The position numbers and the translations under genes are program-made. A stretch of 64,000 nt of DNA from a virus (lineage: Duplodnaviria; Caudoviricetes). Below, in pieces: positions 9,653 through 45,182 of this stretch (position 1 is the first letter of the stretch; each line of letters opens with the position of its first letter). The notes under the pieces are model-generated. The model worked only from the letters and a program-made list of their open reading frames with translations, was not told where the DNA came from and did no database searches. Where the stretch lies: the IMG/VR virus record IMGVR_UViG_3300026159_000398; one strand, given 5' to 3'.

Positions 9653-9901
9653 TTATTTTGGACGCGGTTGCGCCATGTGCGCCACCGACATCATCGTGGA
9701 TATCATTTCCACTGGCGTGACGTTGCGTGTGATGACGCCGTTGTGTATTTTGCCAACAATATAAAAATCATTCAAGAATTCTTGATTAAATGGAATAATT
9801 CGTTCCACAATAATAGATACCTTTATCTCTGATTTTCCATCTTTAAGTTTCTCAAGAAGCTCATCACATGACTCTTGAACCATAGTCTGAAGTTCATTCA
9901 T
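9653..9901 (-). CDS. Hypothetical protein, last gene of the coupled rSAM-YcaO block
   Basis: ATGA overlap with the ycaO stop; GGAG RBS. Confidence 0.65.
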   Translation of the reverse strand: MNELQTMVQESCDELLEKLKDGKSEIKVSIIVERIIPFNQEFLNDFYIVGKIHNGVITRNVTPVEMISTMMSVAHMAQPRPK

Positions 9902-11229
9902 ATTTGTTCTCCAATTTCAATTCCAATTTTACTAAAATATTTATACCAACCATCAAGAGCCTCAAAACTTTCAATGGAATATGTCAACCAATCTTGTGTG
10001 TTTTTAGGGTCACCAACAAGATTAAATTGCATATGTGCCAATTCACTTATTCCTGGAATAATTATTCTTACTGTTGGAATTCCAATAAATGGTTGAGTAG
10101 CATCAATAACAATTAAATCAGTATTTAATTTTTGACATGAATTTACTAGAGATTGTATAAAACTATCAGTAGTTTTTTCAGGTGCTTTATACCCTTTAGA
10201 CATGGCCATAAATCTCTGAATATCTGTTAAATCACCCATGAAGCATTGGAAATTTGAACTCCAAAGATCTTTAGTTTTGCGCCATTCTTCACGAGGCAAC
10301 ACTCTATGATTTTGCATATCTACAACGTGGTTTTCCCAACCTTGAAAATATTCTGTAATACATCTCGTTGCCGCGATATTCATATTTGGAGATGCACCAA
10401 AAACAATTTGTCTTCTGCTAACTCGTGTTTCAGGTTCACGAATAGCTTCAAAAATACCAGCAATTACTGGAATAGTACCATTATCGGAATAATCTTTTAA
10501 AGTAACTTTTATTCCTTCTTTTTCAACATTCTCAATAAGTTGCTGAACAAAACTATCAAGACATCTCTTATCAAGTGTTGGAACTTCAATATTGCCAGCT
10601 AAAAGATTTCTTACAGCATAACGTTCAAAACATTCGCTGGCACCTTGAATAATAGCATCTTCAATATTTATGCCAGCAGAAAGTCCACTTGAACCGTTAA
10701 TAATAGACACCAATTGATACGGAACCATGACTTCTTCATTGGTCACAAGAGAAAAACCCTTTATCCAATGTTTAGCAACATTGGTGTTCTTTATTCTTTC
10801 TATATCGTCGTATGAATGTTGAATTTTTGAAAAAATAGATTCAACCGTTACTGGATTTCTTACTTCACTTTGATGCCCATAAAAATAAGCAGTCTGAAGA
10901 TGTTTTCCTCGTGAAGCGGCATGAAGCAGGAATGGAGTTAAATGCGTGGCGCGCATCGTGGTTCCAATTGATGTCTGAAGTCGTTCACATGCTTCTCCCA
11001 TAGCAGAAGCCAATGAAGATTCTGGTGTCGTTCCTTTGCCATTAACACCCATTCCCATTGATGGAAATTTAATAGAACAATAATACGTAGGAACATTTTG
11101 ATAACGAACAGGTTGCACTATCGTATAATCAATGCCAGATTTATCAAGTGCATCCTTCAAAATTATCAATGATTCTTCAATACCAACACTCTTATCAAAT
11201 TCATTCAACACTCTATTCACTAATTTCAT
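9898..11229 (-). CDS. ycaO: YcaO-family ATP-dependent amide-activating enzyme (stand-alone)
   Basis: NGKGTTPESSLASAMGEACER, SSGLSAG..EDAIIQGASECFER, RCITEYFQ and VRIIIPG are the YcaO ATP-binding motifs. Confidence 0.88.
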   Translation of the reverse strand: MKLVNRVLNEFDKSVGIEESLIILKDALDKSGIDYTIVQPVRYQNVPTYYCSIKFPSMGMGVNGKGTTPESSLASAMGEACERLQTSIGTTMRATHLTPFLLHAASRGKHLQTAYFYGHQSEVRNPVTVESIFSKIQHSYDDIERIKNTNVAKHWIKGFSLVTNEEVMVPYQLVSIINGSSGLSAGINIEDAIIQGASECFERYAVRNLLAGNIEVPTLDKRCLDSFVQQLIENVEKEGIKVTLKDYSDNGTIPVIAGIFEAIREPETRVSRRQIVFGASPNMNIAATRCITEYFQGWENHVVDMQNHRVLPREEWRKTKDLWSSNFQCFMGDLTDIQRFMAMSKGYKAPEKTTDSFIQSLVNSCQKLNTDLIVIDATQPFIGIPTVRIIIPGISELAHMQFNLVGDPKNTQDWLTYSIESFEALDGWYKYFSKIGIEIGEQI

Positions 11230-11660: not shown

Positions 11661-12422
11661 TTAATAAGTTGAACCATGACATAAAACACAATTTATTGCA
11701 TATGAATAACAAGTGGTATTGCATGAACACGAGTGACCATGGCAAGTCGCCGCATCGCATGTTGTACATAATTCTGCTTGACAATGGCATATACCGTTGC
11801 AAGTACAAGTAATAGAGTAACAAGTATTGTTGCAACCACAAAAAGCAGTATAAGTATAAACACCGGCATTATGCCCAGTATTATAACATCCACAACGCCA
11901 ACCATATGTAGTATTATTACATGTGCATGTTTCAGTGTAACATGAGTTATAACAAGTGCAGTTATCACCAGTTGTGCAACTGTCTGCTGAAGTGTGGCAA
12001 TGCGTACACGTTGGCGCCGTATCTCCAGTGTGGCAAGCCCAACATTGTGCTTCAAGACTCAATAAATTGGTGCGAACTTCATTAGCAACACCGTATGCCA
12101 ATTTAGAATCATATTGTGTTACTGATGTCCATGAGAAATTTCCGCCAGTTCCAAGATACGTGTCTTTATAATTGTCTAGTGTGGTTCGAATGCTGTCCAA
12201 CAATGATTTAAGAACAACAGCATATTGTTTATCTGTAGTGCTTTCACCATAATTGCTTCCATACACATAACTAATTTTTTTATCAGCATGCATAGAAGCA
12301 TTATTATATTTCGTCCAATATGCTTTTATTCTATTGATGACACCTTGAACCCAATCGGCACCAACATAAGAATTATATTGTGAAACAGTATTTACTGTTG
12401 TATTGGCAGGGCAATCGCTCAT
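11661..12422 (-). CDS. Cys-rich protein, probable substrate of the rSAM/YcaO enzymes
   Basis: 27 Cys in the last ~127 aa, with repeating CxC(Y/N)xx(C/T)(Y/H) units; TAATG overlap with the rSAM stop. Confidence 0.8.
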   Translation of the reverse strand: MSDCPANTTVNTVSQYNSYVGADWVQGVINRIKAYWTKYNNASMHADKKISYVYGSNYGESTTDKQYAVVLKSLLDSIRTTLDNYKDTYLGTGGNFSWTSVTQYDSKLAYGVANEVRTNLLSLEAQCWACHTGDTAPTCTHCHTSADSCTTGDNCTCYNSCYTETCTCNNTTYGWRCGCYNTGHNAGVYTYTAFCGCNNTCYSITCTCNGICHCQAELCTTCDAATCHGHSCSCNTTCYSYAINCVLCHGSTY

Positions 12423-14059
12423 TATTTATTTTCCCAATATAAGAAGAACATTTCAGCTAAAGATTTTTTCTGCGAATCTTCAAGCTTAATCGTACTCAAT
12501 AATTGATCACGATTAAACGCACCCATATTGCAAATACACGCTTTCATATCTTGTGCATTGGTAATGTTTTTCATTTCTTGATCAACCATTGCTCTAATCA
12601 TCATCATCAATGACAATTGATCTTTCATTTCATCAGTAGCAAGACTGCCATAGAGTTGTCTTCTGACGATATCGTCAATCAAATCAGGAATGCTGGCGTA
12701 ATTAGACATATTACATGCACAATTCATAGCGGCGCCATCGCCATTAAAGGTGGAATAAAATCCTTTAACTCCTAACATACCACTATAATGATAAAGAACA
12801 CCAAATTTTATTGCATTCATAATTTCATAAAAAGCCAATTCATAAAGCAACATTTTAATTTTGCATATTTTTCCATCAATTGTGCCAGTCAATACTCCAT
12901 CATTATCATATTTAACTGCGTAACAACCACCAAGACATAACATTTCAATTGGACAATCTTTACAATGCATGAGTGGTGATTGAGCTCCAAGAAAAGTAGG
13001 AGTCTTAAGATCGTTTAATTCATAATACAATTCTTCATTGGTTATATTTTCAAAGATACTGCCAAGACAGAATTTCTTTTCGTGCCATTCGACATCAAGC
13101 GTATTGTGTTTGTTTGTTCTGTGACAAATATAAATGGCGCCTTCAACACTCACACCCATAAAATTACTGCCAGCTCCACAAGCTCTTCCACTTGGATTAT
13201 TTGGAGTAGGTTTACCTAAAATGCCCCTTTGTAAAACAAAACGACCATTGTCGTCAAGAAACTTAGAACCCAAGAAACGTTCCTTTTTTGCCAATAGTTG
13301 TATACGAAAATCTGCCAATTGCTCCAATTCTTTTTTATAATCTTGAAGATCTTGATCGGTCCAATCGGCATCATAATTTTCAGAAAAGAATATGCTGTCA
13401 AACCCCATCTCATAAAAGGTCTTAATGTTCTCAAACATTCCAATGATATTGCCTGGTGTTGGAGTCATTCGTATGCCAGGAAGGTGCTTGTTAAAATTTT
13501 TATACATTTTAACAACATCTTGCAGTCTCTTTTCAATTATAGGCCATGAAGAACTTCCATCAGGAAAAATACGTTCGCTGTTACGTTCTCCAATACCATC
13601 AATAGATAAAAGAAAATGTATATCTCGTGGAAGCAGCCATGCTAATTTATCTTCATTAAGTAATGTTACGTTGGTTGTTCCACCAAAACGAAATTTCTTT
13701 CCAACTTTATTTGCTTCTTCATCAGCATAAACAACTAATTGTTGAAGCAATTCAAACTTCATTAGTGGTTCACCACCCCAAAAATCAATTACAAGATGTG
13801 AATTCATAGCTTCTAAATCTTTTGGTGCTGGCCCAGATACATCATCACGCAAAAACCAATCAATGACCTGTTTGCCAGTTTCGAATGTTAAATCTTTTGA
13901 GGTGTCTTCTGTTTTGCAGGTATTCTGGTCGAATCCATGGTCGGCAAAACAATATTTGCAACGTAGTGTGCAACGTTCTGTGAGGTCTAAAGAAATAGTT
14001 TGAATTGGAGTTCCCAATTCAACTGGTGATTTGCCTTGTTTTAATTGCTGTGGTTTCAT
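12422..14059 (-). CDS. Radical SAM/SPASM-domain maturase
   Basis: CTLRCKYC (CX3CX2C), DFWGGEPL and LSIDG, plus SPASM motifs CGAG...ICHR and CKDCPIEMLCLGGC...C. Confidence 0.92.
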   Translation of the reverse strand: MKPQQLKQGKSPVELGTPIQTISLDLTERCTLRCKYCFADHGFDQNTCKTEDTSKDLTFETGKQVIDWFLRDDVSGPAPKDLEAMNSHLVIDFWGGEPLMKFELLQQLVVYADEEANKVGKKFRFGGTTNVTLLNEDKLAWLLPRDIHFLLSIDGIGERNSERIFPDGSSSWPIIEKRLQDVVKMYKNFNKHLPGIRMTPTPGNIIGMFENIKTFYEMGFDSIFFSENYDADWTDQDLQDYKKELEQLADFRIQLLAKKERFLGSKFLDDNGRFVLQRGILGKPTPNNPSGRACGAGSNFMGVSVEGAIYICHRTNKHNTLDVEWHEKKFCLGSIFENITNEELYYELNDLKTPTFLGAQSPLMHCKDCPIEMLCLGGCYAVKYDNDGVLTGTIDGKICKIKMLLYELAFYEIMNAIKFGVLYHYSGMLGVKGFYSTFNGDGAAMNCACNMSNYASIPDLIDDIVRRQLYGSLATDEMKDQLSLMMMIRAMVDQEMKNITNAQDMKACICNMGAFNRDQLLSTIKLEDSQKKSLAEMFFLYWENK

Positions 14060-14096: not shown

Positions 14097-14864
14097 TTAT
14101 ACGAAAATTTTGAGATGATGTTCATGCTTCTCAATGATGACACCAATCAATTTGCTATATTCAATTTCATGTTGGAACATCTCAATACTATCTTTTAAAA
14201 TTCCATCACGAGTAAAATACAATCTTCTGCCTACATGGAATTTTTTGGTATCTTGAACATTGACATCCAATTGACCTTTCATACCAACAAATACTGGATG
14301 CTTGTATTTCTTATTGACTCCAACAATAAAGCCAGGATTCTTCGATACGACGCCTACAAACGCATCAGCAACTCCTTGCCATGCGGTTACTCTAAATGAA
14401 TGATGCATGATATCTACGAATGCCAGATCACCAGGTTTTAATGTGCCATCAGATGGAACTTGTTCAGCAATATCATTCCAAATAGCATTAAAGACGCGGC
14501 CAGAAATAAAGTTAGTTGAAGAGTTTATTGTACTAAAAGTTGATGGAATACCAGTTGAAGTGCCATATTCAAATAGACCCATAATATGGCTAGAAGAGTC
14601 TTGAATAGAAAGTTGTGGAGCTGTTCCACTTCCTTTGATAACACCGGTTGATAATAATAAATCTGAAGTAATAGGGCTGATGAATAATTCAGCACGAGTT
14701 ACGTACTTCTTTCTATTACTATCAGCACTATCTTCGATAAGAATATAATCAGCATCAATTGGTGTTGCTTTATGCGAAAGCGCAACAAATTCTCCTAGTG
14801 CTCCTTTTTGAAAGAAGACGCTAGGGTCGACTGTTGTGAAGAGTATGGCACTGGTATTTTCCAT
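14097..14864 (-). CDS. Short tail-fibre-type protein with a C-terminal intramolecular-chaperone-like domain
   Basis: FNAIWNDIAE...PGD...VGVVSKNPGF...VGMKGQL matches a common fibre C-terminal chaperone pattern. The N-terminal IEDSADS module is shared with the long fibre. Confidence 0.6.
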   Translation of the reverse strand: MENTSAILFTTVDPSVFFQKGALGEFVALSHKATPIDADYILIEDSADSNRKKYVTRAELFISPITSDLLLSTGVIKGSGTAPQLSIQDSSSHIMGLFEYGTSTGIPSTFSTINSSTNFISGRVFNAIWNDIAEQVPSDGTLKPGDLAFVDIMHHSFRVTAWQGVADAFVGVVSKNPGFIVGVNKKYKHPVFVGMKGQLDVNVQDTKKFHVGRRLYFTRDGILKDSIEMFQHEIEYSKLIGVIIEKHEHHLKIFV

Positions 14865-14867
14865 AAA

Positions 14868-16220
14868 TTATTTTTGTTTATTAAGCTCTTGTAAGAACGC
14901 TTTTAAATTTCCGATATACTGTTTTTGTCCAACATGACCAGTAGTCATTGACGAATCTACGTATATCTTTCCACCCAAGTCTCTCCATTTCTTGCAGAAC
15001 ATAATGTCCTCGCTGTATAATTCTCCATCAACGACTCCAATATTGAAGATCATCTTTGATGGAACAGGCTTTTGCGATTCTTTATAGTCTTCTGAACTCT
15101 CATATAGTTTTACAATTGCTTCACGCGAAATACACATGAGACCTGTGCCAACTCCTTCGACTTCAATAATATCAGTCTCGAATTTCGTCTGCGTGGTCTT
15201 CACATTGAATGCAATCTCATCGTTCTTCTTGCGACATGGAGCTGCAATAATTTCTTTTTTTGCGTCAAGTAACTTAAAGATATCTTCAGGATTCCAAAGA
15301 ATATCACTATCAATAAATATCAAATAGTCTGCTTTGGCATCGTAAGCCATCTTGAAAAGATCATTACGCGCTCTTTGGATTAAAGCATCACCACAAAGGA
15401 ATATATGTTGGACTGCAATTCCTTTTTGCGCACCGAGTTGCTTAGTGTTAATCAAACAATCGACGTAATTCGCATGAAGATGCCAATCATGACTTGGAGT
15501 ACCAATAACAACCGTAGTTGATGGCATTCCAAGAATACTCTTAAAAATCTTTTCTTCTTCTTGCAATATACCCTTGTCATACAACTTCAATTCATTAACT
15601 GTTGTAGACTTGGCGTGATAAATAGTCTTATTAGTTATAAAGCCAATAGCGTGCTTTTGATCAAGAATACTTTTATAGATTAAATTATCACCAAAGAAAT
15701 ATTTCAGTTCTTTTGGAATTGGCTTATATTGTTCTTTACGGCCGAACATAAACCATCCTTGGAAATTAAGCACTCCATTTTTATCTGGTTGTCTTGTCCA
15801 TTCAGGCTTCGCTGAATTCTTGACATTAAAATAACCAGAAGCGTCTTCTTTTATAATGTCTTCGGTTTTAACGGTAACCAAATCAACATCATGAGCTGCA
15901 TCTGAATCAAGAACTTTAATGCATGAATCTATGATTGATGGCTCAATAACGATATCATCATTCAAAAGAAGATAATATTCAGTACCACAAATCTCAATGC
16001 CTCTATTCCATGATGGATTTATAAAGAAGTTAGAGTCATTGAAGTAATGAATCTTGTCATTCATCATCCATTCTGGTATTGATTTGTCATCACACTCAGT
16101 ATTGTCAAAGATAAAAATCTCTTCAACATTCTCGTCATCGATACACTTCTGAAGCGTATCTTTTAGAATCTCCACGCTCTTTAAGAGTGTAGGAATTATT
16201 ACAGTTACTCGTCCGCTCAT
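14868..16220 (-). CDS. Two-domain GT-A (GT2-like) glycosyltransferase
   Basis: Domain 1 has VIIPTL, SWNRGI, LLNDD and FFGDN. Domain 2 has ARNDLF, FIDSD, GTGLMCISR and SEDIMFC. Confidence 0.85.
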   Translation of the reverse strand: MSGRVTVIIPTLLKSVEILKDTLQKCIDDENVEEIFIFDNTECDDKSIPEWMMNDKIHYFNDSNFFINPSWNRGIEICGTEYYLLLNDDIVIEPSIIDSCIKVLDSDAAHDVDLVTVKTEDIIKEDASGYFNVKNSAKPEWTRQPDKNGVLNFQGWFMFGRKEQYKPIPKELKYFFGDNLIYKSILDQKHAIGFITNKTIYHAKSTTVNELKLYDKGILQEEEKIFKSILGMPSTTVVIGTPSHDWHLHANYVDCLINTKQLGAQKGIAVQHIFLCGDALIQRARNDLFKMAYDAKADYLIFIDSDILWNPEDIFKLLDAKKEIIAAPCRKKNDEIAFNVKTTQTKFETDIIEVEGVGTGLMCISREAIVKLYESSEDYKESQKPVPSKMIFNIGVVDGELYSEDIMFCKKWRDLGGKIYVDSSMTTGHVGQKQYIGNLKAFLQELNKQK

Positions 16221-16250: not shown

Positions 16251-16260
16251 AATTATATTA
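16251..16260 (-). promoter_or_regulatory. TAATATAATT candidate phage promoter
   Basis: Exact motif overlapping the fibre stop codon, about 30 nt upstream of the glycosyltransferase. Confidence 0.5.
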
Positions 16261-19200
16261 CTTCTTCTTTAATATTTCTATTTCAGTTTTGAGGTCCTCT
16301 ATTTGTTTTGAAAGTTCTTGAACTGCTTTAACCAATGGCAATAAGAGCTTGCCATTTGAAACTTCGAGGCGGTCTGGATTGCTCTCAAGAACCATATTCA
16401 AATAGTCAGCGTCAAAATCCTTTTGTACTTGCTTGATCTCTTGAGCTATGAGACCAACATCCCATGCGTCTGATTTCTTGCTGCCATCAACCACTCCATC
16501 AGGATACCATTCACGACGGTCCCAATGGAACTTGCGAACCTTAACTGCGTTAATGAAGTTCAATCCAAGATCGAAGTCACCAATATCGGCTTTATCTCTC
16601 ATGTCTGAGAGAGCCACAATAGTTTGAGTATTGCAACGAAGTACAGTTACGTTAGCATCACCAAGAGTTATTTCGTTTGTAGCTGTGGCTGCTGAAGCTT
16701 GGGCATTGTAGCCAACAAGAGTTAAGTTACTTCCAGTTGTTATTGTATTTCCGGCTGTATAACCTATAGCAGTATTGTTATTGCCAAATGTATTTGCGCC
16801 TAAAGAACCTCTACCAACGGCAATATTCTGAATGCCTGTTGTATTGGCAATAAGTGCTCCATAACCAACAGCTACGTTACTTGCACCAGTTGTATTTACT
16901 GATAATGCTCCATGGCCAAGAGCAGTATTATAACCTCCAAATGTGTTAGCGGCTAATGTTGAAACACCAATCGCTGTGTTATATTGGCCTGTGGTATTTA
17001 AAGTAAGAGCTAATGTACCAATGGCTGTATTAAATGAAGAAACGTTGGCGTTAAGAGTATTTCTACCAACTGCTGTATTTTGAGTACCAATTACGTTAGC
17101 ACTCAAAGCTCCACTACCAATAGCGGTATTGTATTGACCTGTTGTGTTAAGAGCTAGTGCGTAATAACCAAGAGCTACGTTTCTATCACCTATTGTATTT
17201 GCAGCCAGCGTTTGGTGACCAATGGCAGTATTGTAAACTCCGGTCGTATTAGCAGCCAATGCATTACTGCCAATTGCTACGTTCTGTGTACCAATCGAGT
17301 TAGCAGTAAGAGCATTGTGGCCAATTGCAACATTATCAATACCCGTGATATTCGCATAAAGTGCTTGAAAACCAATTGCTATATTTTGGCGTCCAAATGT
17401 ATTAGTATCAAGAGTTCTATAGCCAATAGCTACATTATCATTACCAGTTCTGTTGTTCACGAGAGCTCGATATCCGAGTGCCAGATTTCTGTTTCCGAAT
17501 GTATTAGCACCTAAAGCATCTCGGCCAATGGCGAAGTTATCGGCTCCTGTTGTGTTAACTGAAAGGGCTTGATAACCAATAGCGATTAAGCTTCCAACTG
17601 TTGAAGCTGCGGCAGCAGCAAAACCTATTGCTACACTATAATTTCCTGTTACACTGGCTGTTAAAGCGTTGTAGCCAATAGCAACATTACTTGCACCGAA
17701 TGTATTAGCATCGAGGGCATAACTTCCAATAGCAATGTTGTAAGCACCGGTTGTATTCGCATTTAGCGCATTATTACCAATGGCTACGTTATCAGTTCCA
17801 ATTGTATTAACACCAAGAGTATTGGAACCAATAGCAACATTACTTACTCCTGTTGTATTGGCATCGAGAGCTTGATGACCAATGGCGATGTTATCGGTTC
17901 CAAAAGTATTGGCAATAAGAGCACTAGAACCTATTGCAACATTATATTGTCCTGTTGTATTTGCAGAAAGAGCACTCCATCCAATGCCAACATTAAAACT
18001 TGAAACGGTATTATTGAGAGTCAAATAACCAATAGCTACGTTTTGTGCACCAGTAAGATTGTTTGTTAAAGCGGATCTTCCAATAGCGACGTTAACATTA
18101 CCCCATGTATTTTTGCCACATGCATCATATCCGATAGCAACATTATGAGAACCTGTTGTATTGTCATAAAGTGCGTAACTTCCAATAGCAGTATTGTAAG
18201 CACCAATTGTATTGGCACTCAATGTGTTAGCACCAACCGCAGTATTATCCCCGCCAGTTGTATTCAAAGTAAGAGATAGATAACCAACAGCTGTGTTTCC
18301 TTGGCCTGTTGTATTGGCTTTAAGCGCTTGATAACCAACTGCAGTCCACCAGCCGTTCGCCATATTAGCAACGTTTAACGCTTCATGACCGATAGCCACG
18401 TTTCCTGAACCAGAAACATTTGCACCTAAAGTATTATATCCAATAGCGACGTTATCAACACCGATTGTATTTGCTTGAAGTGCAGCCCAGCCAACAGCGA
18501 CGTTGTTGTTGCCTGTTGTATTGCTCCAAAGTGCACTAACTCCAATGGCTACGTTATAAACTCCGAATGTATTGAAATACATTGCATTGGCGCCAACGGC
18601 TGTATTTGAATAACCTGTTGTAGTTGAATATAATGCTTGATAGCCAATAGCGGTATTCCAGCTAGTTGTGTTCGTATAAAGAGCTTGATGGCCAATGGCG
18701 GTATTGTTAACACCGATTAAATTTGTATAAAGTGCTCGATAACCAACAGCAATATTGTTTTCACCTGTTGTATTGGCATTTAATGCATAAGCTCCAACAG
18801 CGGTATTATAACGAGCGATTGTGTTGTTTGTTAATGCCCCAGCACCAATGGCTGTATTGTTTGTTCCGGTTGAGTTGGTTCCAAGTGCAGCAGCACCGAA
18901 GGCCGTGTTTCTATCACCTATATCGTTATTATAAAGTGCTAAATATCCAACAGCAGTATTTCTTACTCCAGTTGTGTTGCTTGTTAAAGCACTGTTTCCG
19001 ATTGCTGTATTGAAAGCACCAATTGTATTTGTTTGAAGTGAAGCATATCCAACCGCAGTATTACTTGCGCCAGTTGTGTTGCTTAATAAAGTATTGCTTC
19101 CAACACCAACGTTATAGTTTCCAAAAGTATTGGCACTTAATGCATTATTACCAATACCAACATTCTGAATACCTGTTGTATTGGCATCAAGTGCGGCATT

Positions 19201-22200
19201 TCCAATTGCTAAGTTGGCCACACCAGTAGTATTAAGTGTAAGTGCATTGTAGCCAATAGCAATGTTATAATGTCCAAATGTATTGCTATAAAGAGCTTGC
19301 CATCCAACAGCTACGTTATGATTTCCAGTTATGTTGTTAAACATTGCTTCGTTGCCAATTGCAACGTTATCATAACCATAAGTATTGGATGACATTGCGT
19401 TATAACCAACAGCTGTATTTTGAAAACCAGATACGTTTGCAGCTAAAGTACCAAGGCCGATTGCTGTGTTATAATTACCTGTTACATTGTTGCCTAAAGC
19501 GTTGTAACCTAAAGCAGTATTGTAATTTCCAAATGTATTGTTATGAAGCGCATAATAACCAACGGCTGTATTTTGTGCACCGGTTGTATTGACCAATAAT
19601 GCTTGAGAACCCAATGCTGTATTGCTTGCAATGTCTCCAGCACCCAAACCAATTGTGAGCGAATGAACGGTAAGATCATTTGCAATTGGCTCTAAGAAAA
19701 TTGATGCACGAGTTACTCTCTTCTTATTCCAAGAATCTGCGCTATCTTCAATAATGAATTCATCAAGATCAACTACTGGTGTTTTAGCATCTACGACGTG
19801 AATTTCATTTGGCACATTTGTATGAAGAGCGTAAATGTCTGTAATTGTTGTTGCTAATTCAGACGCGCGATATGGAAGAACGTGAATCGTATTTGCATCT
19901 TCAACAAACAATACTGGATTGCTGAATCCTGTTTCTGGTTCTGTCGCAGTCAAAACACCAGCAGAAGTCGTGCTTACGAAGTAGAATGTTTCAACTGTCA
20001 ATCCATGAGCTGTTATTGTGAATCGACCAGACTGAGCAGCAACAAAGCTATCAAGACCAGTTACTTCTGTAATAACATGAGTAGCCAACGTTAATGAGTT
20101 GTCTGCTAATGCCGCTTTCCAGATACCTGCATCAAAATAGATTGGTGTGAGTACTGTGAATCCATGACCAGTTTGAGCAACAGTAAACGTTGTGCCGGCG
20201 CTTCCACCAGATACTAAATCATCAAGTGTATCAAGAGCTTTTTGGACTGTGTCATCTGCTACAGACAAATTATTGTTAAAATTATCTGTATTAACTGAAA
20301 TACTTGAAGCACTTGTAGCTCCAAGAATTAAGTTGTCTATTGTATCAAGAGCTTTTTGAACTGTGTCATCTGCCGCAGACAAGTTATTATTGAAGTTACT
20401 TGTATCTGTTGGTATTGTAGAGGCGGTGGGCGATGGGCCTGCGGCTCCAATAACAGTACCAGTAGAAGTTGAAACTCGGATGTTGATAAAAGTAGCATCA
20501 ACAAGCTTGATATGTGTGTTTGTAAAAAGACCCGTCGTATTATATAAGAATGTCAAACGATAGATTGGCACAATTTCTTGAATAGCAAGAGCAGCTAAAC
20601 CAGATAGATTATTAAATGACCATCCAGATTCAGAAAGTGTTGTTGTTAAATTAGAACCCACAGATTGCGATTGACCCATAATCGCAATCAATGGTTGGCT
20701 CGTCATGTTTGTTGCACAAAGATATACACAATAGTATCTGTTGGCGGTCATATTGCTCCAACCGCCAGTTGGGTTATTATATTGTGCCGTCATTGAAGCA
20801 ATTGTAGATGCATCTACAGCGGCTCCACCACTTACACCAAGAAAGTCAGTAGTCGGATTTAATCTTCTCCAAGTATAAACTCCACCAACATAACTATCAA
20901 TGTAGAATATTGGAATGCGAGCACCAATTACTATGGCATCTCCTGATACCATTCCAGCTACTGTTGCAACCGTGAAAGATGTACCTGTTCCACCAGCTGA
21001 AATTGTTGTTGTACCACGAACAATAGTAGTGTTTCCTTGCATAACTGTGACAGCTTGTCCAGTCACAAGTGTGTGTGATGTTGAAAATACTATGGTTGTG
21101 TCGTTGGTTCCTACTGTTGCTAATGCCGTAAAACCAAGGAATTGTTCTACCGTAAGAGCCCAATCTGTATATGGAGCTGCAGTTGTAGAAGCTATTGAAG
21201 CGTCAGTGTGGACAATCGCATTACGTATATCTTCATCAAAAAATGAGCCGCTAGAAATTTGAACTTGAGCACGTCCAAAGTTGTCGTTTGTATTTCCCGA
21301 AAGATTAGTAAGTCCATTGTATTGATTGAAAATAAAACCACTATTGTAAACAGCACCTTGCGCGTGGTTTCTTGCGTGTTGGAAAATATCACGGCCTGCG
21401 GTGTGACGTTCTTCACCAATCCATGTGATATTGGTTGTTACTGAATTATAACGAAAATTCCACAAGAGAACATCAGGACTATAAATATCCCAAGGAATTT
21501 GTGTTAATACAAGAACTGGAGTAGCAACATCAGTTGTTGTTTTATCGATATATAAGAACCATAGACCTTCAGCGGCAGTTGCACTTATTGTATATGCTGA
21601 AATATTTCCAGCAGTAACGGTAAATTTCTTTCCATTAATGTAGTAACTAAAAGAGGTGTTTGCCCCAACAAATGAAATTGTAGCTACAATATCAGGAGCA
21701 GAATATGTAATAGCAACTTTAAATTTTCCGCGTTCACTCCATGGAACACCAGTTGCTAATTTAGTGTCAAGGCCGTAATTAACAAAGTTTCTATTTAAAG
21801 AACTGATTGTCACATCAGTAAAAGAAGGAGAATCAGTTGTGTTGATTGCTTGATCTGAATGGTAGAATGATGATGTGTCAACATCGCCACCTTGGAGTCC
21901 TGATAAACCATTGTGAATAGTTATACCAGAGAAAACCATTGTTGTTGCAGTATCTATCTTTGATGCTGTTGAAGCACCAGTTGCTACAATAATACGTCCA
22001 ACCAACATGCTGAAAGTTGTAAACAATGCTGGCAAGTTAGAAGGTGGAGTACTTGCTGCGGCATCTGCCAACGTTCCATAAGCGCTTGTTCCAAGAACAA
22101 CCAAAGTTTGTAAAGAGTTTTGAGTAAGAACACGGTAAATCCAGTTGACAGCGTATTTATTTGGCGTCAGAGCAACAAGATTTGTTCCGTTGTCGTATTG

Positions 22201-23928
22201 TGAATTATTATATTGTGTAATAGTGGTTGATGTCCATACCCCGGCTGAGTGGTAGTACAAAGTCATTTCTTGACCACCGACATCAGACTTAATGGCATCC
22301 AATGTTACATTAGCGGCTCCATACCATACTTTACCCGATGAGATGTTGACAACACGAGTTGCGCTTTCTGTGATAATTAAACTATTTGGTTCTGCATGGA
22401 AGCGGTCTGTTTTAACCAATCGATGTGAGAGTTTGTTTGAGAGGCCTTGAGCCATCAAATCCCACATGAGATAATAGATTGTGCCACCATTATTGAAAAC
22501 AGTCACAATAGGAATTACGTTACTTTGATTGATTGGAGTAACGTCCGTAATCATCTCTACAATAGGATTTCCACTATTGTAGTTGGCTACGATGTAGCTC
22601 GTAACTCCAGAAGTCGGATTAAATGTTCCACCTGCAATTTTGTATCTATTCAGCGATGGGCTGTAATATGTGTCATCATCGTAAAGAAGATATTCACCAG
22701 TTCCAACTGTTATAGAACCAGCTCCTGTACTTATTGATGGGCTTATAAAAATACCAGCACTATCATAGAACACGTAATCTGGCATTTCTTCGACAGAATC
22801 GAAGTATGGGTGCATTACCCCTTCATCTGCTCCCACTTCTATAGCGGCAAAACCAATGTACACACAGTGGTCACGAAGAATTAAGGGCGGTTCAGGAGGA
22901 AGTTCTTGGTGACATTCATCTTCATTGTAGTGTTGTACAGTTCCAAGAGTATAGAATACTTCTCGAACATCGCCAATACTTCTATAGAAGTAACGATTTA
23001 CCCAACGGTTTGCTGTACCGGCGACGGCATTTGTACCATTGTCGTAAAGAGAATTATCGTAGTATGTTTCATGTGTGTATGTCCACACTCCGCCAACGTG
23101 ATTAACACGTGTAAGAGTATGCGTACTTGAATCAAATGGGTTGACAACTATTGGTGTTACACCGGCATAGACTATCGCACTTGTAACAACAACTGTACGA
23201 TAATGTGGCGAACTTGATTCACTGATAATGAGTCCTTTGTCGATTGAACGTCTGTATGATACAGTGTTGTACGCCCAACGGTGAATTTTGTTTGCAAGTC
23301 CAAGACCAAAAGTATCATCACCAATAGAGTGAATTGTTGAATCTTGTCTCCAACAAACAAAGACGGTAAAAATAGAAGAACCATTGATTAAATATTTATT
23401 GGTTTCTTTGCGGCAAATTGGTGTGCCACCATTGTAATCAACAACAACATACTCTTCTGTATTTTCAGTAAAAGTAAGAGTTACTTCAGGAATTGTAAAT
23501 GCTTTAAGAATTCCAGTATAATCAGCATTAGGATATACAAAAGCTACGAATGAACTTATTGTTGCTGTACCATCATTATTATCTGTAAGTGTAGGTTCGG
23601 TAATTGGACCTGCATCTTGTGGAAAAGTAGAATAAGTATTTACTACACCAGCTTCGGCGTATAATACACCATTCTTTGTCAAGAAATTCAAATTGGTAAT
23701 ATTTGCAGTTGTAATATTGCCAGTCGTAATATTATCAGTTGTGATATTGGCAGTGTCAAGATTGGCAGTTGTGGCGCCAAGTGTAGTTATTGTGGCGCTT
23801 GTGGCTCCAAGAGTTGTTATGTCGGCTTCTAACGCGTTTAATCCAGCAGCAGAAAGATCAAGAGTATCACCGTCTTGAATTTGCTGCTTAAGACCACTGT
23901 TGAGAACTAATGGTTTTCTATCTGCCAT
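16258..23928 (-). CDS. Long tail fibre/adhesin (2556 aa) with a beta-repeat shaft and C-terminal peptidase S74 chaperone
   Basis: About 70 tandem 14-aa repeats N(T/V)A(I/V)GxxALxxNTxG, then LSDMRDK...GLIAQE...LVKAVQEL and a terminal coiled coil. Confidence 0.88.
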   Translation of the reverse strand: MADRKPLVLNSGLKQQIQDGDTLDLSAAGLNALEADITTLGATSATITTLGATTANLDTANITTDNITTGNITTANITNLNFLTKNGVLYAEAGVVNTYSTFPQDAGPITEPTLTDNNDGTATISSFVAFVYPNADYTGILKAFTIPEVTLTFTENTEEYVVVDYNGGTPICRKETNKYLINGSSIFTVFVCWRQDSTIHSIGDDTFGLGLANKIHRWAYNTVSYRRSIDKGLIISESSSPHYRTVVVTSAIVYAGVTPIVVNPFDSSTHTLTRVNHVGGVWTYTHETYYDNSLYDNGTNAVAGTANRWVNRYFYRSIGDVREVFYTLGTVQHYNEDECHQELPPEPPLILRDHCVYIGFAAIEVGADEGVMHPYFDSVEEMPDYVFYDSAGIFISPSISTGAGSITVGTGEYLLYDDDTYYSPSLNRYKIAGGTFNPTSGVTSYIVANYNSGNPIVEMITDVTPINQSNVIPIVTVFNNGGTIYYLMWDLMAQGLSNKLSHRLVKTDRFHAEPNSLIITESATRVVNISSGKVWYGAANVTLDAIKSDVGGQEMTLYYHSAGVWTSTTITQYNNSQYDNGTNLVALTPNKYAVNWIYRVLTQNSLQTLVVLGTSAYGTLADAAASTPPSNLPALFTTFSMLVGRIIVATGASTASKIDTATTMVFSGITIHNGLSGLQGGDVDTSSFYHSDQAINTTDSPSFTDVTISSLNRNFVNYGLDTKLATGVPWSERGKFKVAITYSAPDIVATISFVGANTSFSYYINGKKFTVTAGNISAYTISATAAEGLWFLYIDKTTTDVATPVLVLTQIPWDIYSPDVLLWNFRYNSVTTNITWIGEERHTAGRDIFQHARNHAQGAVYNSGFIFNQYNGLTNLSGNTNDNFGRAQVQISSGSFFDEDIRNAIVHTDASIASTTAAPYTDWALTVEQFLGFTALATVGTNDTTIVFSTSHTLVTGQAVTVMQGNTTIVRGTTTISAGGTGTSFTVATVAGMVSGDAIVIGARIPIFYIDSYVGGVYTWRRLNPTTDFLGVSGGAAVDASTIASMTAQYNNPTGGWSNMTANRYYCVYLCATNMTSQPLIAIMGQSQSVGSNLTTTLSESGWSFNNLSGLAALAIQEIVPIYRLTFLYNTTGLFTNTHIKLVDATFINIRVSTSTGTVIGAAGPSPTASTIPTDTSNFNNNLSAADDTVQKALDTIDNLILGATSASSISVNTDNFNNNLSVADDTVQKALDTLDDLVSGGSAGTTFTVAQTGHGFTVLTPIYFDAGIWKAALADNSLTLATHVITEVTGLDSFVAAQSGRFTITAHGLTVETFYFVSTTSAGVLTATEPETGFSNPVLFVEDANTIHVLPYRASELATTITDIYALHTNVPNEIHVVDAKTPVVDLDEFIIEDSADSWNKKRVTRASIFLEPIANDLTVHSLTIGLGAGDIASNTALGSQALLVNTTGAQNTAVGYYALHNNTFGNYNTALGYNALGNNVTGNYNTAIGLGTLAANVSGFQNTAVGYNAMSSNTYGYDNVAIGNEAMFNNITGNHNVAVGWQALYSNTFGHYNIAIGYNALTLNTTGVANLAIGNAALDANTTGIQNVGIGNNALSANTFGNYNVGVGSNTLLSNTTGASNTAVGYASLQTNTIGAFNTAIGNSALTSNTTGVRNTAVGYLALYNNDIGDRNTAFGAAALGTNSTGTNNTAIGAGALTNNTIARYNTAVGAYALNANTTGENNIAVGYRALYTNLIGVNNTAIGHQALYTNTTSWNTAIGYQALYSTTTGYSNTAVGANAMYFNTFGVYNVAIGVSALWSNTTGNNNVAVGWAALQANTIGVDNVAIGYNTLGANVSGSGNVAIGHEALNVANMANGWWTAVGYQALKANTTGQGNTAVGYLSLTLNTTGGDNTAVGANTLSANTIGAYNTAIGSYALYDNTTGSHNVAIGYDACGKNTWGNVNVAIGRSALTNNLTGAQNVAIGYLTLNNTVSSFNVGIGWSALSANTTGQYNVAIGSSALIANTFGTDNIAIGHQALDANTTGVSNVAIGSNTLGVNTIGTDNVAIGNNALNANTTGAYNIAIGSYALDANTFGASNVAIGYNALTASVTGNYSVAIGFAAAAASTVGSLIAIGYQALSVNTTGADNFAIGRDALGANTFGNRNLALGYRALVNNRTGNDNVAIGYRTLDTNTFGRQNIAIGFQALYANITGIDNVAIGHNALTANSIGTQNVAIGSNALAANTTGVYNTAIGHQTLAANTIGDRNVALGYYALALNTTGQYNTAIGSGALSANVIGTQNTAVGRNTLNANVSSFNTAIGTLALTLNTTGQYNTAIGVSTLAANTFGGYNTALGHGALSVNTTGASNVAVGYGALIANTTGIQNIAVGRGSLGANTFGNNNTAIGYTAGNTITTGSNLTLVGYNAQASAATATNEITLGDANVTVLRCNTQTIVALSDMRDKADIGDFDLGLNFINAVKVRKFHWDRREWYPDGVVDGSKKSDAWDVGLIAQEIKQVQKDFDADYLNMVLESNPDRLEVSNGKLLLPLVKAVQELSKQIEDLKTEIEILKKK
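16700..19630 (-). repeat. Degenerate 42-bp (14-aa) coding repeat array in the tail fibre
   Basis: NTAIGxxALxxNTTG periodicity is visible in both protein and DNA; boundaries are approximate. Confidence 0.9.
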
Positions 23929-44813: not shown

Positions 44814-45182
44814 TTAACTTAATACGAAGACTTTGTGTACAAGAGATTCGTATGATTGTTCTTTAGTTTGATCTGCAAAATGCCATGCTAGATAAATAAT
44901 AATTCCGACAGTCGCGCCATCAGGAACGATATCGCAGCCAACGGCTTCAAGCACAATTCTAGGTTCGTAGTTTTGAATAAGATTGGTCGCCTCTTGAATG
45001 ACTGCGATGGCTGTTTTTTCTACAGCGCCTTCATCGAGATAATCAAGAATACGTGAACCTTTATTCAGGCCGTTAATTGACGTGCCTAATTCTGTGAACA
45101 AAAGACGTTCCAATGTGGCGTGCATTAAGACTTCATTGGCAGCAATCTTTATATCGTTTTCAGTAATTATTAAACCTTGCAC
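44814..45182 (-). CDS. gp25-like baseplate wedge subunit
   Basis: LERLLFTELG....GSRILDYL...IQNYEPRI is the gp25 signature. Confidence 0.75.
   Translation of the reverse strand: MQGLIITENDIKIAANEVLMHATLERLLFTELGTSINGLNKGSRILDYLDEGAVEKTAIAVIQEATNLIQNYEPRIVLEAVGCDIVPDGATVGIIIYLAWHFADQTKEQSYESLVHKVFVLS

Follow-up and report, generated by a model that had tools for sequence, protein, structure and literature searches.

What is a protein with a cysteine-packed, repetitive rear half doing at the end of the tail-fibre genes of a large uncultured phage (Duplodnaviria; Caudoviricetes; IMG/VR record IMGVR_UViG_3300026159_000398), and what acts on it? To address this question, we analyzed the 64,000-nucleotide stretch that encodes the protein (hereafter the window) and searched for relatives of the protein and of its neighbours. 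Coordinates of the features discussed below are collected in the following table.

Features of the Cys-repeat locus and its surroundings in the window
Position	Strand	Feature	Length	Details
9653..9901	-	ORF overlapping the end of ycaO, unknown, possibly the last gene of the cassette	82 aa	No family hit; no homologue in the related loci
9898..11229	-	Stand-alone YcaO	443 aa	
11226..11648	-	Protein of unknown family, found only together with the YcaO	140 aa	
11661..12422	-	Cys-repeat protein (P0001)	253 aa	
11664..12044	-	Cys-rich core	residues 127-253	27 Cys; seven CxC units of the 11-12-residue repeat C-x-C-[ND]-x-[TS]-C-[YH]-G-[YF]; opened by a conserved C-W-A-C motif
12045..12422	-	N-terminal domain, predicted helical	residues 1-126	One Cys (the invariant Cys4)
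12422..14059	-	Radical SAM/SPASM enzyme	545 aa	Stop shares one base with the start of the Cys-repeat gene
12425..12817	-	C-terminal extension of the radical SAM	about residues 415-545	Two substrate-like C-x-C-N-x-x-x-[YF] motifs, at residues 447 and 508
14097..14864	-	Fibre-like protein directly upstream of the radical SAM	255 aa	C-terminal 160-200 residues belong to the conserved gene set
16258..23928	-	Tail fibre with a C-terminal intramolecular chaperone domain	2556 aa	Pfam Peptidase_S74, 2.3e-7, 31.4 bits against a cut-off of 22
44814..45182	-	gp25 baseplate wedge protein, further upstream		

A preliminary description of the locus had reported that the cysteines are confined, but for one, to the second half of the protein and had listed six related CxC units there; this observation held exactly. 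The ORF translates without stops, the cysteine counts of the two halves were reproduced by script, and the six units start at residues 155, 166, 177, 195, 206 and 232, with a seventh CxC at residue 212 overlapping the fifth unit. The rear half contains 27 C, 25 T, 11 N, 10 G, 10 Y and 8 H among 127 residues; about 21% Cys is far from anything chance would give. No tandem repeat could be found at the DNA level, which rules out a recent tandem duplication and indicates that the units are old and diverged.

We next asked whether the protein belongs to a real gene family. It has no match in Pfam or NCBIfam (at E up to 0.1) or in PHROG, and a tblastn search of 50,697 phage records found none. A word-indexed search nevertheless found five homologues of 263-275 aa at 38-47% identity, and a full profile search of 1.84 billion representatives gave 33 hits, four more of them full-length relatives. 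Together these nine full-length relatives share 29-52% identity and all come from metagenomes. Across the ten members, 13 Cys positions are invariant and 11 more (nine of them in P0001) are kept in at least 90% of sequences, including Cys4 and the C-W-A-C motif. An 88%-identical variant keeps all 28 Cys, with its substitutions spread over both halves. The number of repeats varies among homologues, as the preliminary description had thought worth checking: they carry 5-12 CxC units, and the window's protein is among the shorter, lacking two blocks that are present in its closest relatives.

To define the repeat, 16 proteins were split at CxC and the 82 units of 10-13 residues were compared. These give the consensus C-[ST]-C-[ND]-x-[TS]-C-[YH]-G-[YF]-[ST] with an optional twelfth residue, so that beyond Cys the repeat conserves N/D at position 4, T/S at 6, an aromatic at 8, G at 9 and Y/F at 10. 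Such conservation fits a recognition motif or a defined fold better than plain metal binding. The same repeat sits inside or at the end of tail-module proteins of other phages, of 160-1000 aa, that have quite different front parts: a 358-aa protein with a weak collagen-trimerisation match at its N-terminus, proteins of 398, 433, 475 and 650 aa, a 1034-aa protein that ends in the repeat and is encoded downstream of the tape-measure gene in a prophage-like contig (locus L013; loci other than the window are numbered with an L), and small proteins of 165-185 aa that are almost all repeat. A second subfamily ends in Y-P-W-[TS], and its pre-repeat helices align weakly with helices 2-3 of the window's N-terminal half (hhalign probability 65%, E 6e-5). 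None of these proteins carries a name or a Pfam domain.

The absence of a radical-SAM neighbour beside homologues had been named beforehand as an outcome that would count against an enzymatically modified core, and we therefore inspected the surroundings of each locus. The enzyme is adjacent in the window, L001, L002, L003, L005 (partial, recognised by its C-terminal extension), L006/L007, L010, L013/L014 and L017, and lies 2-4 kb away in L016 and L022, giving 11 independent loci with a clear radical-SAM/SPASM gene within 4 kb. L023 holds the same genes as L022, but its counterpart carries no Pfam hit and is not included in this number. A twelfth locus, L019, has only a weak match (27% over 122 aa) about 2 kb away. 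No radical SAM was seen in L015 (1.4 kb upstream; its relative L016 has the enzyme 4 kb upstream), L020 (4.2 kb examined) and L008/L009 (1.7-kb contigs), in all of which little flanking DNA was present; two further contigs are left out of these counts. Outside such short flanks, a homologue without the enzyme was not encountered. The single shared base of the window is paralleled by an overlap of 8 nt between the two genes in L001, L002, L003 and L006.

What kind of enzyme is this? Pfam Radical_SAM matches at 33.2 bits, above its cut-off. The best NCBIfam matches are the PapB ranthipeptide maturase (1.6e-52; 178.8 bits against a cut-off of 340), the SCIFF thioether maturase (5e-42; 144.3 against 425), the Nif11-peptide maturase (4e-39) and the QhpD-type maturase (1.3e-37; 129.5 against 453), all well below their equivalog cut-offs, such that the enzyme is related to these families but is not an equivalog. 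The best solved relative is CteB (5WGG, 2.8e-23). The closest characterised relatives, CteB, PapB and QhpD, make Cys-to-carbon thioethers. The alignment with CteB starts at CteB residue 88, after its leader-binding RRE domain, and the CX3CX2C motif lies at residue 30 in the window's enzyme and at residues 15-30 in every partner enzyme, which leaves no room for an RRE. Eight Cys lie between residues 294 and 399, four of them as a CX2CX5CX3C string at 366-379, the pattern of SPASM auxiliary clusters. The extension that follows carries two CxC motifs in 9 of the 10 partner enzymes whose C-terminus could be read, down to 29% identity, while L016 has one; in L010 a free-standing 104-aa copy also lies just after the substrate gene.

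A YcaO and the 140-aa protein follow the Cys-repeat gene in the window, L001, L002 and L003 only. The YcaO was absent from L006, L010, L013 and L016 by tblastn and from L022 by its precomputed Pfam listing, and the 140-aa protein was absent from the first four of these. The YcaO matches PF02624 at 1.7e-46 (159.5 bits against a cut-off of 25.7) but falls below the cut-off of every NCBIfam subfamily model, including that of the SagD family (TIGR03604, 78.7 against 219 bits). Its nearest solved relatives are E. coli YcaO (1.7e-16), the archaeal thioamide enzyme MJ1094 (3.7e-12) and LynD (1.8e-8), in that order. Homologues of the 140-aa protein at 29-36% identity hold the same position in L001-L003; AlphaFold2 folds it confidently (pLDDT 77) into a beta-sheet followed by helices, but it has no family hit and a fold search returned no usable match (best Z 4.1) and nothing resembling an RRE. 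The most conserved non-Cys stretch of the Cys-repeat core is an 18-residue unit containing N-A-G-[VL]-Y. It is confined to the five closest homologues, and the four of these whose context is known all have the YcaO, although this link is only a correlation.

The surroundings of the cassette are those of a tail module. In the window it closes a long minus-strand block that includes the gp25 gene and the fibre carrying Peptidase_S74. Residues 8-76 of the fibre-like protein match residues 1358-1426 of that fibre (E 1e-8), and its C-terminal domain, with an invariant N-A-x-W-N-D-I-A-E stretch, is 37-48% identical to the gene upstream of the radical SAM in L001, L002, L003 and L006. The L003 homologue has collagen repeats, but no family or solved relative of the fibre-like protein was found, and a profile search of solved structures with the domain alignment gave nothing. 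In L001 the set follows the tape-measure and baseplate genes, and in L008 the Cys-repeat gene follows a fibre-repeat protein. The conserved core of the system is therefore a fibre-like protein, a radical SAM and a Cys-repeat protein, with the YcaO and its partner as an add-on. A PHROG scan of ten large window proteins gave only one match, of unknown function, and almost none of this phage's structural proteins match annotated families.

To assess structure, AlphaFold2 was run with the ten-sequence alignment. The N-terminal half gave helices at 22-38, 50-54, 72-86 and 110-125 with pLDDT 55-78, whereas residues 126-253 gave no structure (pLDDT about 25); the alignment is shallow, and this fits a core that does not fold unaided but does not prove it. 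A fold search with the N-half model returned a designed filament as the best match (Z 7.8) and TssK baseplate proteins at Z 5.5-6.5, all within the noise for helical models. A profile search of solved structures with the family alignment gave only chance-level hits, the best being an ATP synthase subunit (E 0.017). Prediction of a complex between three copies of the fibre-like protein (residues 60-255) and the N-half of the Cys-repeat protein scored 0.00 against a mark of 0.32, which is no evidence either way.

Based on these results we infer, with moderate confidence, that the protein is a substrate stapled by thioethers that stays part of the tail apparatus, and not a leader-plus-core peptide made for release. 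In this view the co-translated radical SAM, which has no RRE, would recognise the repeat itself, perhaps through its own repeat-like C-terminal tail, and would most likely convert some cysteines into intramolecular Cys-to-carbon thioethers. A plausible pairing in each unit is the conserved Asn/Asp at position 4 with the Cys three residues later; an N-x-x-C spacing is reported to be used by a streptococcal Cys-Asn thioether enzyme and, in the reverse order, by PapB, which is a lead rather than a test. Several units of the window's protein lack the third Cys or the Asn, however, so that a uniform cross-link of this kind cannot hold for every unit. Stapling would turn an otherwise unstructured, reduced Cys-rich chain into a rigid, redox-independent module, to which the YcaO and its 140-aa partner would, in the window's subgroup, add a second ATP-dependent backbone modification, either azoline or thioamide, although the YcaO may have another protein as its target. 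The helical N-half would stay attached and hold the module on the tail-fibre apparatus. The gene family, the repeat, the synteny and the family resemblance of the enzymes rest directly on our analysis, whereas that the radical SAM acts on this protein, that it forms thioethers, what the YcaO modifies and that the protein has a place in the virion are inferred, the chemistry from family resemblance alone. It also remains a concern that the closest families modify short peptides and not proteins of 250-1000 aa, and that the conserved double CxC in the enzyme itself could equally mean that CxC pairs are metal ligands.

The interpretation in the preliminary description, in which the N-terminal half is a very large leader or a virion-docking domain and the core is modified repeatedly, is thus partly supported. 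The core is very likely the target of the neighbouring radical SAM, but the framing as an oversized RiPP precursor fits poorly, and docking of the N-half onto the virion remains no more than a possibility.

Three other explanations cannot be excluded from sequence, but we consider each of them unlikely. The protein could be a true RiPP precursor with a giant folded leader, from which a roughly 125-residue polycyclic peptide would be cleaved and released at lysis as an antibacterial or signalling agent. The layout of a SPASM radical SAM, a Cys/Thr-rich C-terminal core and a YcaO is RiPP-like, the enzyme resembles the Nif11-leader peptide maturase, and long structured leaders exist in proteusins (PMC10858898). 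However, no protease, exporter or immunity gene was found among the neighbours scanned, neither the enzyme nor the 140-aa protein shows an RRE, the repeat is fused to tail-module proteins of 360-1034 aa that lack this N-terminal domain, and the position at the end of a tail module is conserved. Alternatively, the CxC...C units could fold around Zn, Cu or Fe-S clusters, as in metallothioneins or CXC/pre-SET domains, with the double CxC of the enzyme tail as a homologous metal site and no cross-linking by the enzyme. The Cys content of the core, its enrichment in His, the role of CxC pairs as classic cluster ligands and the inability of AlphaFold to fold the apo core are consistent with this, and the C-x-C-N motif that occurs twice in the enzyme tail provides four Cys, enough for one metal site. 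Metal binding would not explain why a thioether-type SPASM enzyme is linked to the repeat in 11 loci, N/D, T, G and aromatic positions are conserved as strongly as a fold or recognition motif would need, Tyr-rich sequence is atypical of metallothioneins, and no family match was found.

The least favoured of the three is a disulfide-stabilised tight solenoid, analogous to the 12-residue Thr/Cys coils of beetle antifreeze protein, that would oxidise after lysis while the radical SAM and YcaO act on another target such as the upstream fibre-like protein. The period of 11-12 residues, with Cys six residues apart and ladders of Thr, Asn and Tyr, and the conservation of the fibre-like gene with the enzyme in five loci favour this idea. 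In L010, L013 and L017, however, no homologue of the fibre-like gene was detected and yet the enzyme and repeat still co-occur, as they do in L022, which was outside that search; the profile search of solved structures found no antifreeze or other solenoid relative, and AlphaFold predicted no solenoid. We also considered haem attachment as in c-type cytochromes and rejected it because the His of CXXCH is not conserved: after the first C-x-x-C it is Tyr in the relatives P0008, P0009 and P0020, the second motif is absent in P0005, and the third has Tyr in the close relatives. By eye, the N-terminus shows no hydrophobic signal-peptide stretch.

Among characterised systems, the ranthipeptide systems CteB/SCIFF and PapB/freyrasin likewise place a SPASM radical SAM beside a Cys-rich, repetitive substrate in which a repeated short motif pairs a Cys with a nearby Asp/Asn/Thr acceptor. 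Their precursors are about 45-100 aa with a leader peptide, whereas the window's protein is far longer and has a predicted folded N-domain, its enzyme lacks the RRE and has a 130-aa C-terminal extension, and the setting is a phage tail module with an added YcaO. QhpD installs several Cys-to-Asp/Glu thioethers in a protein, QhpC, that stays part of a larger assembly (quinohemoprotein amine dehydrogenase); QhpC is a small non-repetitive subunit accompanied by a quinone cofactor, the window's enzyme is not an orthologue of QhpD, and there is no dehydrogenase context here. The CXXX-repeat target system (TIGR04114/TIGR04115) also combines Cys-repeat proteins with SPASM radical SAMs, but the window's protein does not match its model, the Cys spacing is 2, 4, 4-5 and not 4, 4, 4, with three Cys per 11-12 residues and fixed N/D, T, Y and G, the enzyme scores 89.6 bits against the TIGR04115 cut-off of 350, and a YcaO is present. 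YcaO-dependent thiazole/oxazole (TOMM) and thioamide systems share a YcaO domain next to a Cys/Ser/Thr-rich substrate, but no E1-like/RRE partner, dehydrogenase or TfuA was found among the neighbours scanned, the nearest solved relatives of this YcaO are E. coli YcaO and the archaeal thioamide enzyme rather than LynD, and the YcaO is missing from most loci with the repeat and the radical SAM. By architectural analogy only, the T2/S16-type gp38 adhesin is a protein of about 250 aa encoded after the fibre genes, with an N-terminal attachment domain and a C-terminal domain of short repeated motifs; gp38 uses glycine-rich motifs and needs no modifying enzymes, and no sequence or fold similarity was shown.

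SPASM radical SAMs acting on Cys-repeat substrates are already known, and what differs here is the type of repeat, the two-domain substrate, the repeat-like tail of the enzyme and the added YcaO. Literature searches found no description of a radical-SAM-modified phage tail protein or of this repeat, in a collection that lacks most subscription journals. Neither the repeat domain nor the conserved C-terminal domain of the fibre-like protein has a Pfam, NCBIfam or PHROG model. If our reading holds, enzymes known for making small antibiotic-like peptides are also used by phages to build part of the particle that meets the host, and the product would be a scaffold that does not depend on disulfides or on an oxidising environment. 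A defined enzyme and substrate with a clear repeat motif and no apparent leader/RRE requirement is attractive for enzymology and for engineering stapled repeat proteins. More tentatively, it is possible that phages use RiPP-type enzymes, an RRE-less SPASM radical SAM and here a YcaO, to mature a structural host-recognition module, in which a previously unnamed Cys repeat would be stapled into a covalent, redox-proof scaffold on the tail fibre, with the enzyme's own tail as template or docking unit for the substrate repeats; that would be a new class of virion maturation chemistry and a new protein-level use of ranthipeptide and YcaO chemistry.

Further searches touched on the distribution of these elements. 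A promoter scan gave no clear excess (45 against 37.9 ± 6.7 expected), and nothing usable was found among terminator-like hits. Human-faecal and Campylobacter phage records hold radical SAMs at 24-28% identity, but neither of the two human-faecal loci examined (L011 and L012) has a Cys-repeat neighbour, so they are other systems. A scan of viral contigs with the family alignment matched patterns but confirmed no relative, whereas a degenerate DNA pattern for one repeat unit found six loci, four of them real. The window's 205-kb genome has only the one radical SAM described here, while L001 and L002 add a second one after the YcaO.

The C-terminal extension of the radical SAM carries two C-x-C-[NY]-x-x-x-[YF] motifs that mimic the substrate repeat, and these are conserved in 9 of 10 partner enzymes, down to 29% identity (the window and the related loci L001, L002, L003, L005, L006, L010, L013 and L022). 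In L010, a free-standing copy of this double-motif module is encoded right after the substrate gene. In two related phages, L001 and L002, a second radical SAM follows the YcaO; this gene is absent from the window's 205-kb genome, which has a single radical SAM. Within the core of the Cys-repeat protein, the best conserved non-Cys stretch is a unit containing N-A-G-[VL]-Y and ending in A-F. It occurs only in the five closest homologues, the subgroup linked to the YcaO, and it may be the recognition site for the YcaO or its partner.

Coordinates of additional features in the window and related loci
Sequence	Position	Strand	Feature
Window	12515-12727	-	Two substrate-like motifs, radical SAM C-terminal extension
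Window	11850-11903	-	18-residue unit, residues 174-191 of the Cys-repeat protein
Window	14097-14864	-	Fibre-like protein
Window	14868-16220	-	450-aa protein with N-terminal GT2 glycosyltransferase domain
Window	26992-57323	-	Eight large proteins (422-1128 aa) in the structural block
L001	12530-13666		Second radical SAM, 378 aa, DUF512-like C-terminus
L002	4855-6012		Second radical SAM, 385 aa
L010	2540-2854		Free-standing double-motif module, 104 aa

One family member, L006 (NCBI GCA_009885955.1, VFJS01000012.1), lies in a bacterial assembly next to tail-like genes, a TetR gene and an IS66 transposase, and is probably a prophage. It carries the trio of fibre-like, radical SAM and Cys-repeat genes without a YcaO. 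The fibre-like protein of the window has a C-terminal domain of 160-200 residues with an invariant N-A-x-W-N-D-I-A-E-x-V-x-S-D-G stretch. This domain is conserved upstream of the radical SAM in four other loci and has no Pfam, PHROG or PDB relative; it might be a chaperone or autocleavage domain, or a docking platform. Between the 2556-aa fibre and the fibre-like gene sits a protein with an N-terminal GT2 glycosyltransferase domain and a second, Anp1-like match, which suggests glycosylation of fibre proteins. Eight large proteins in the structural block have no PHROG match at E 1e-4, and the phage is very distant from described ones. One 507-aa protein has weak relatives in Bacteroides DAC phages and in jumbo phages.
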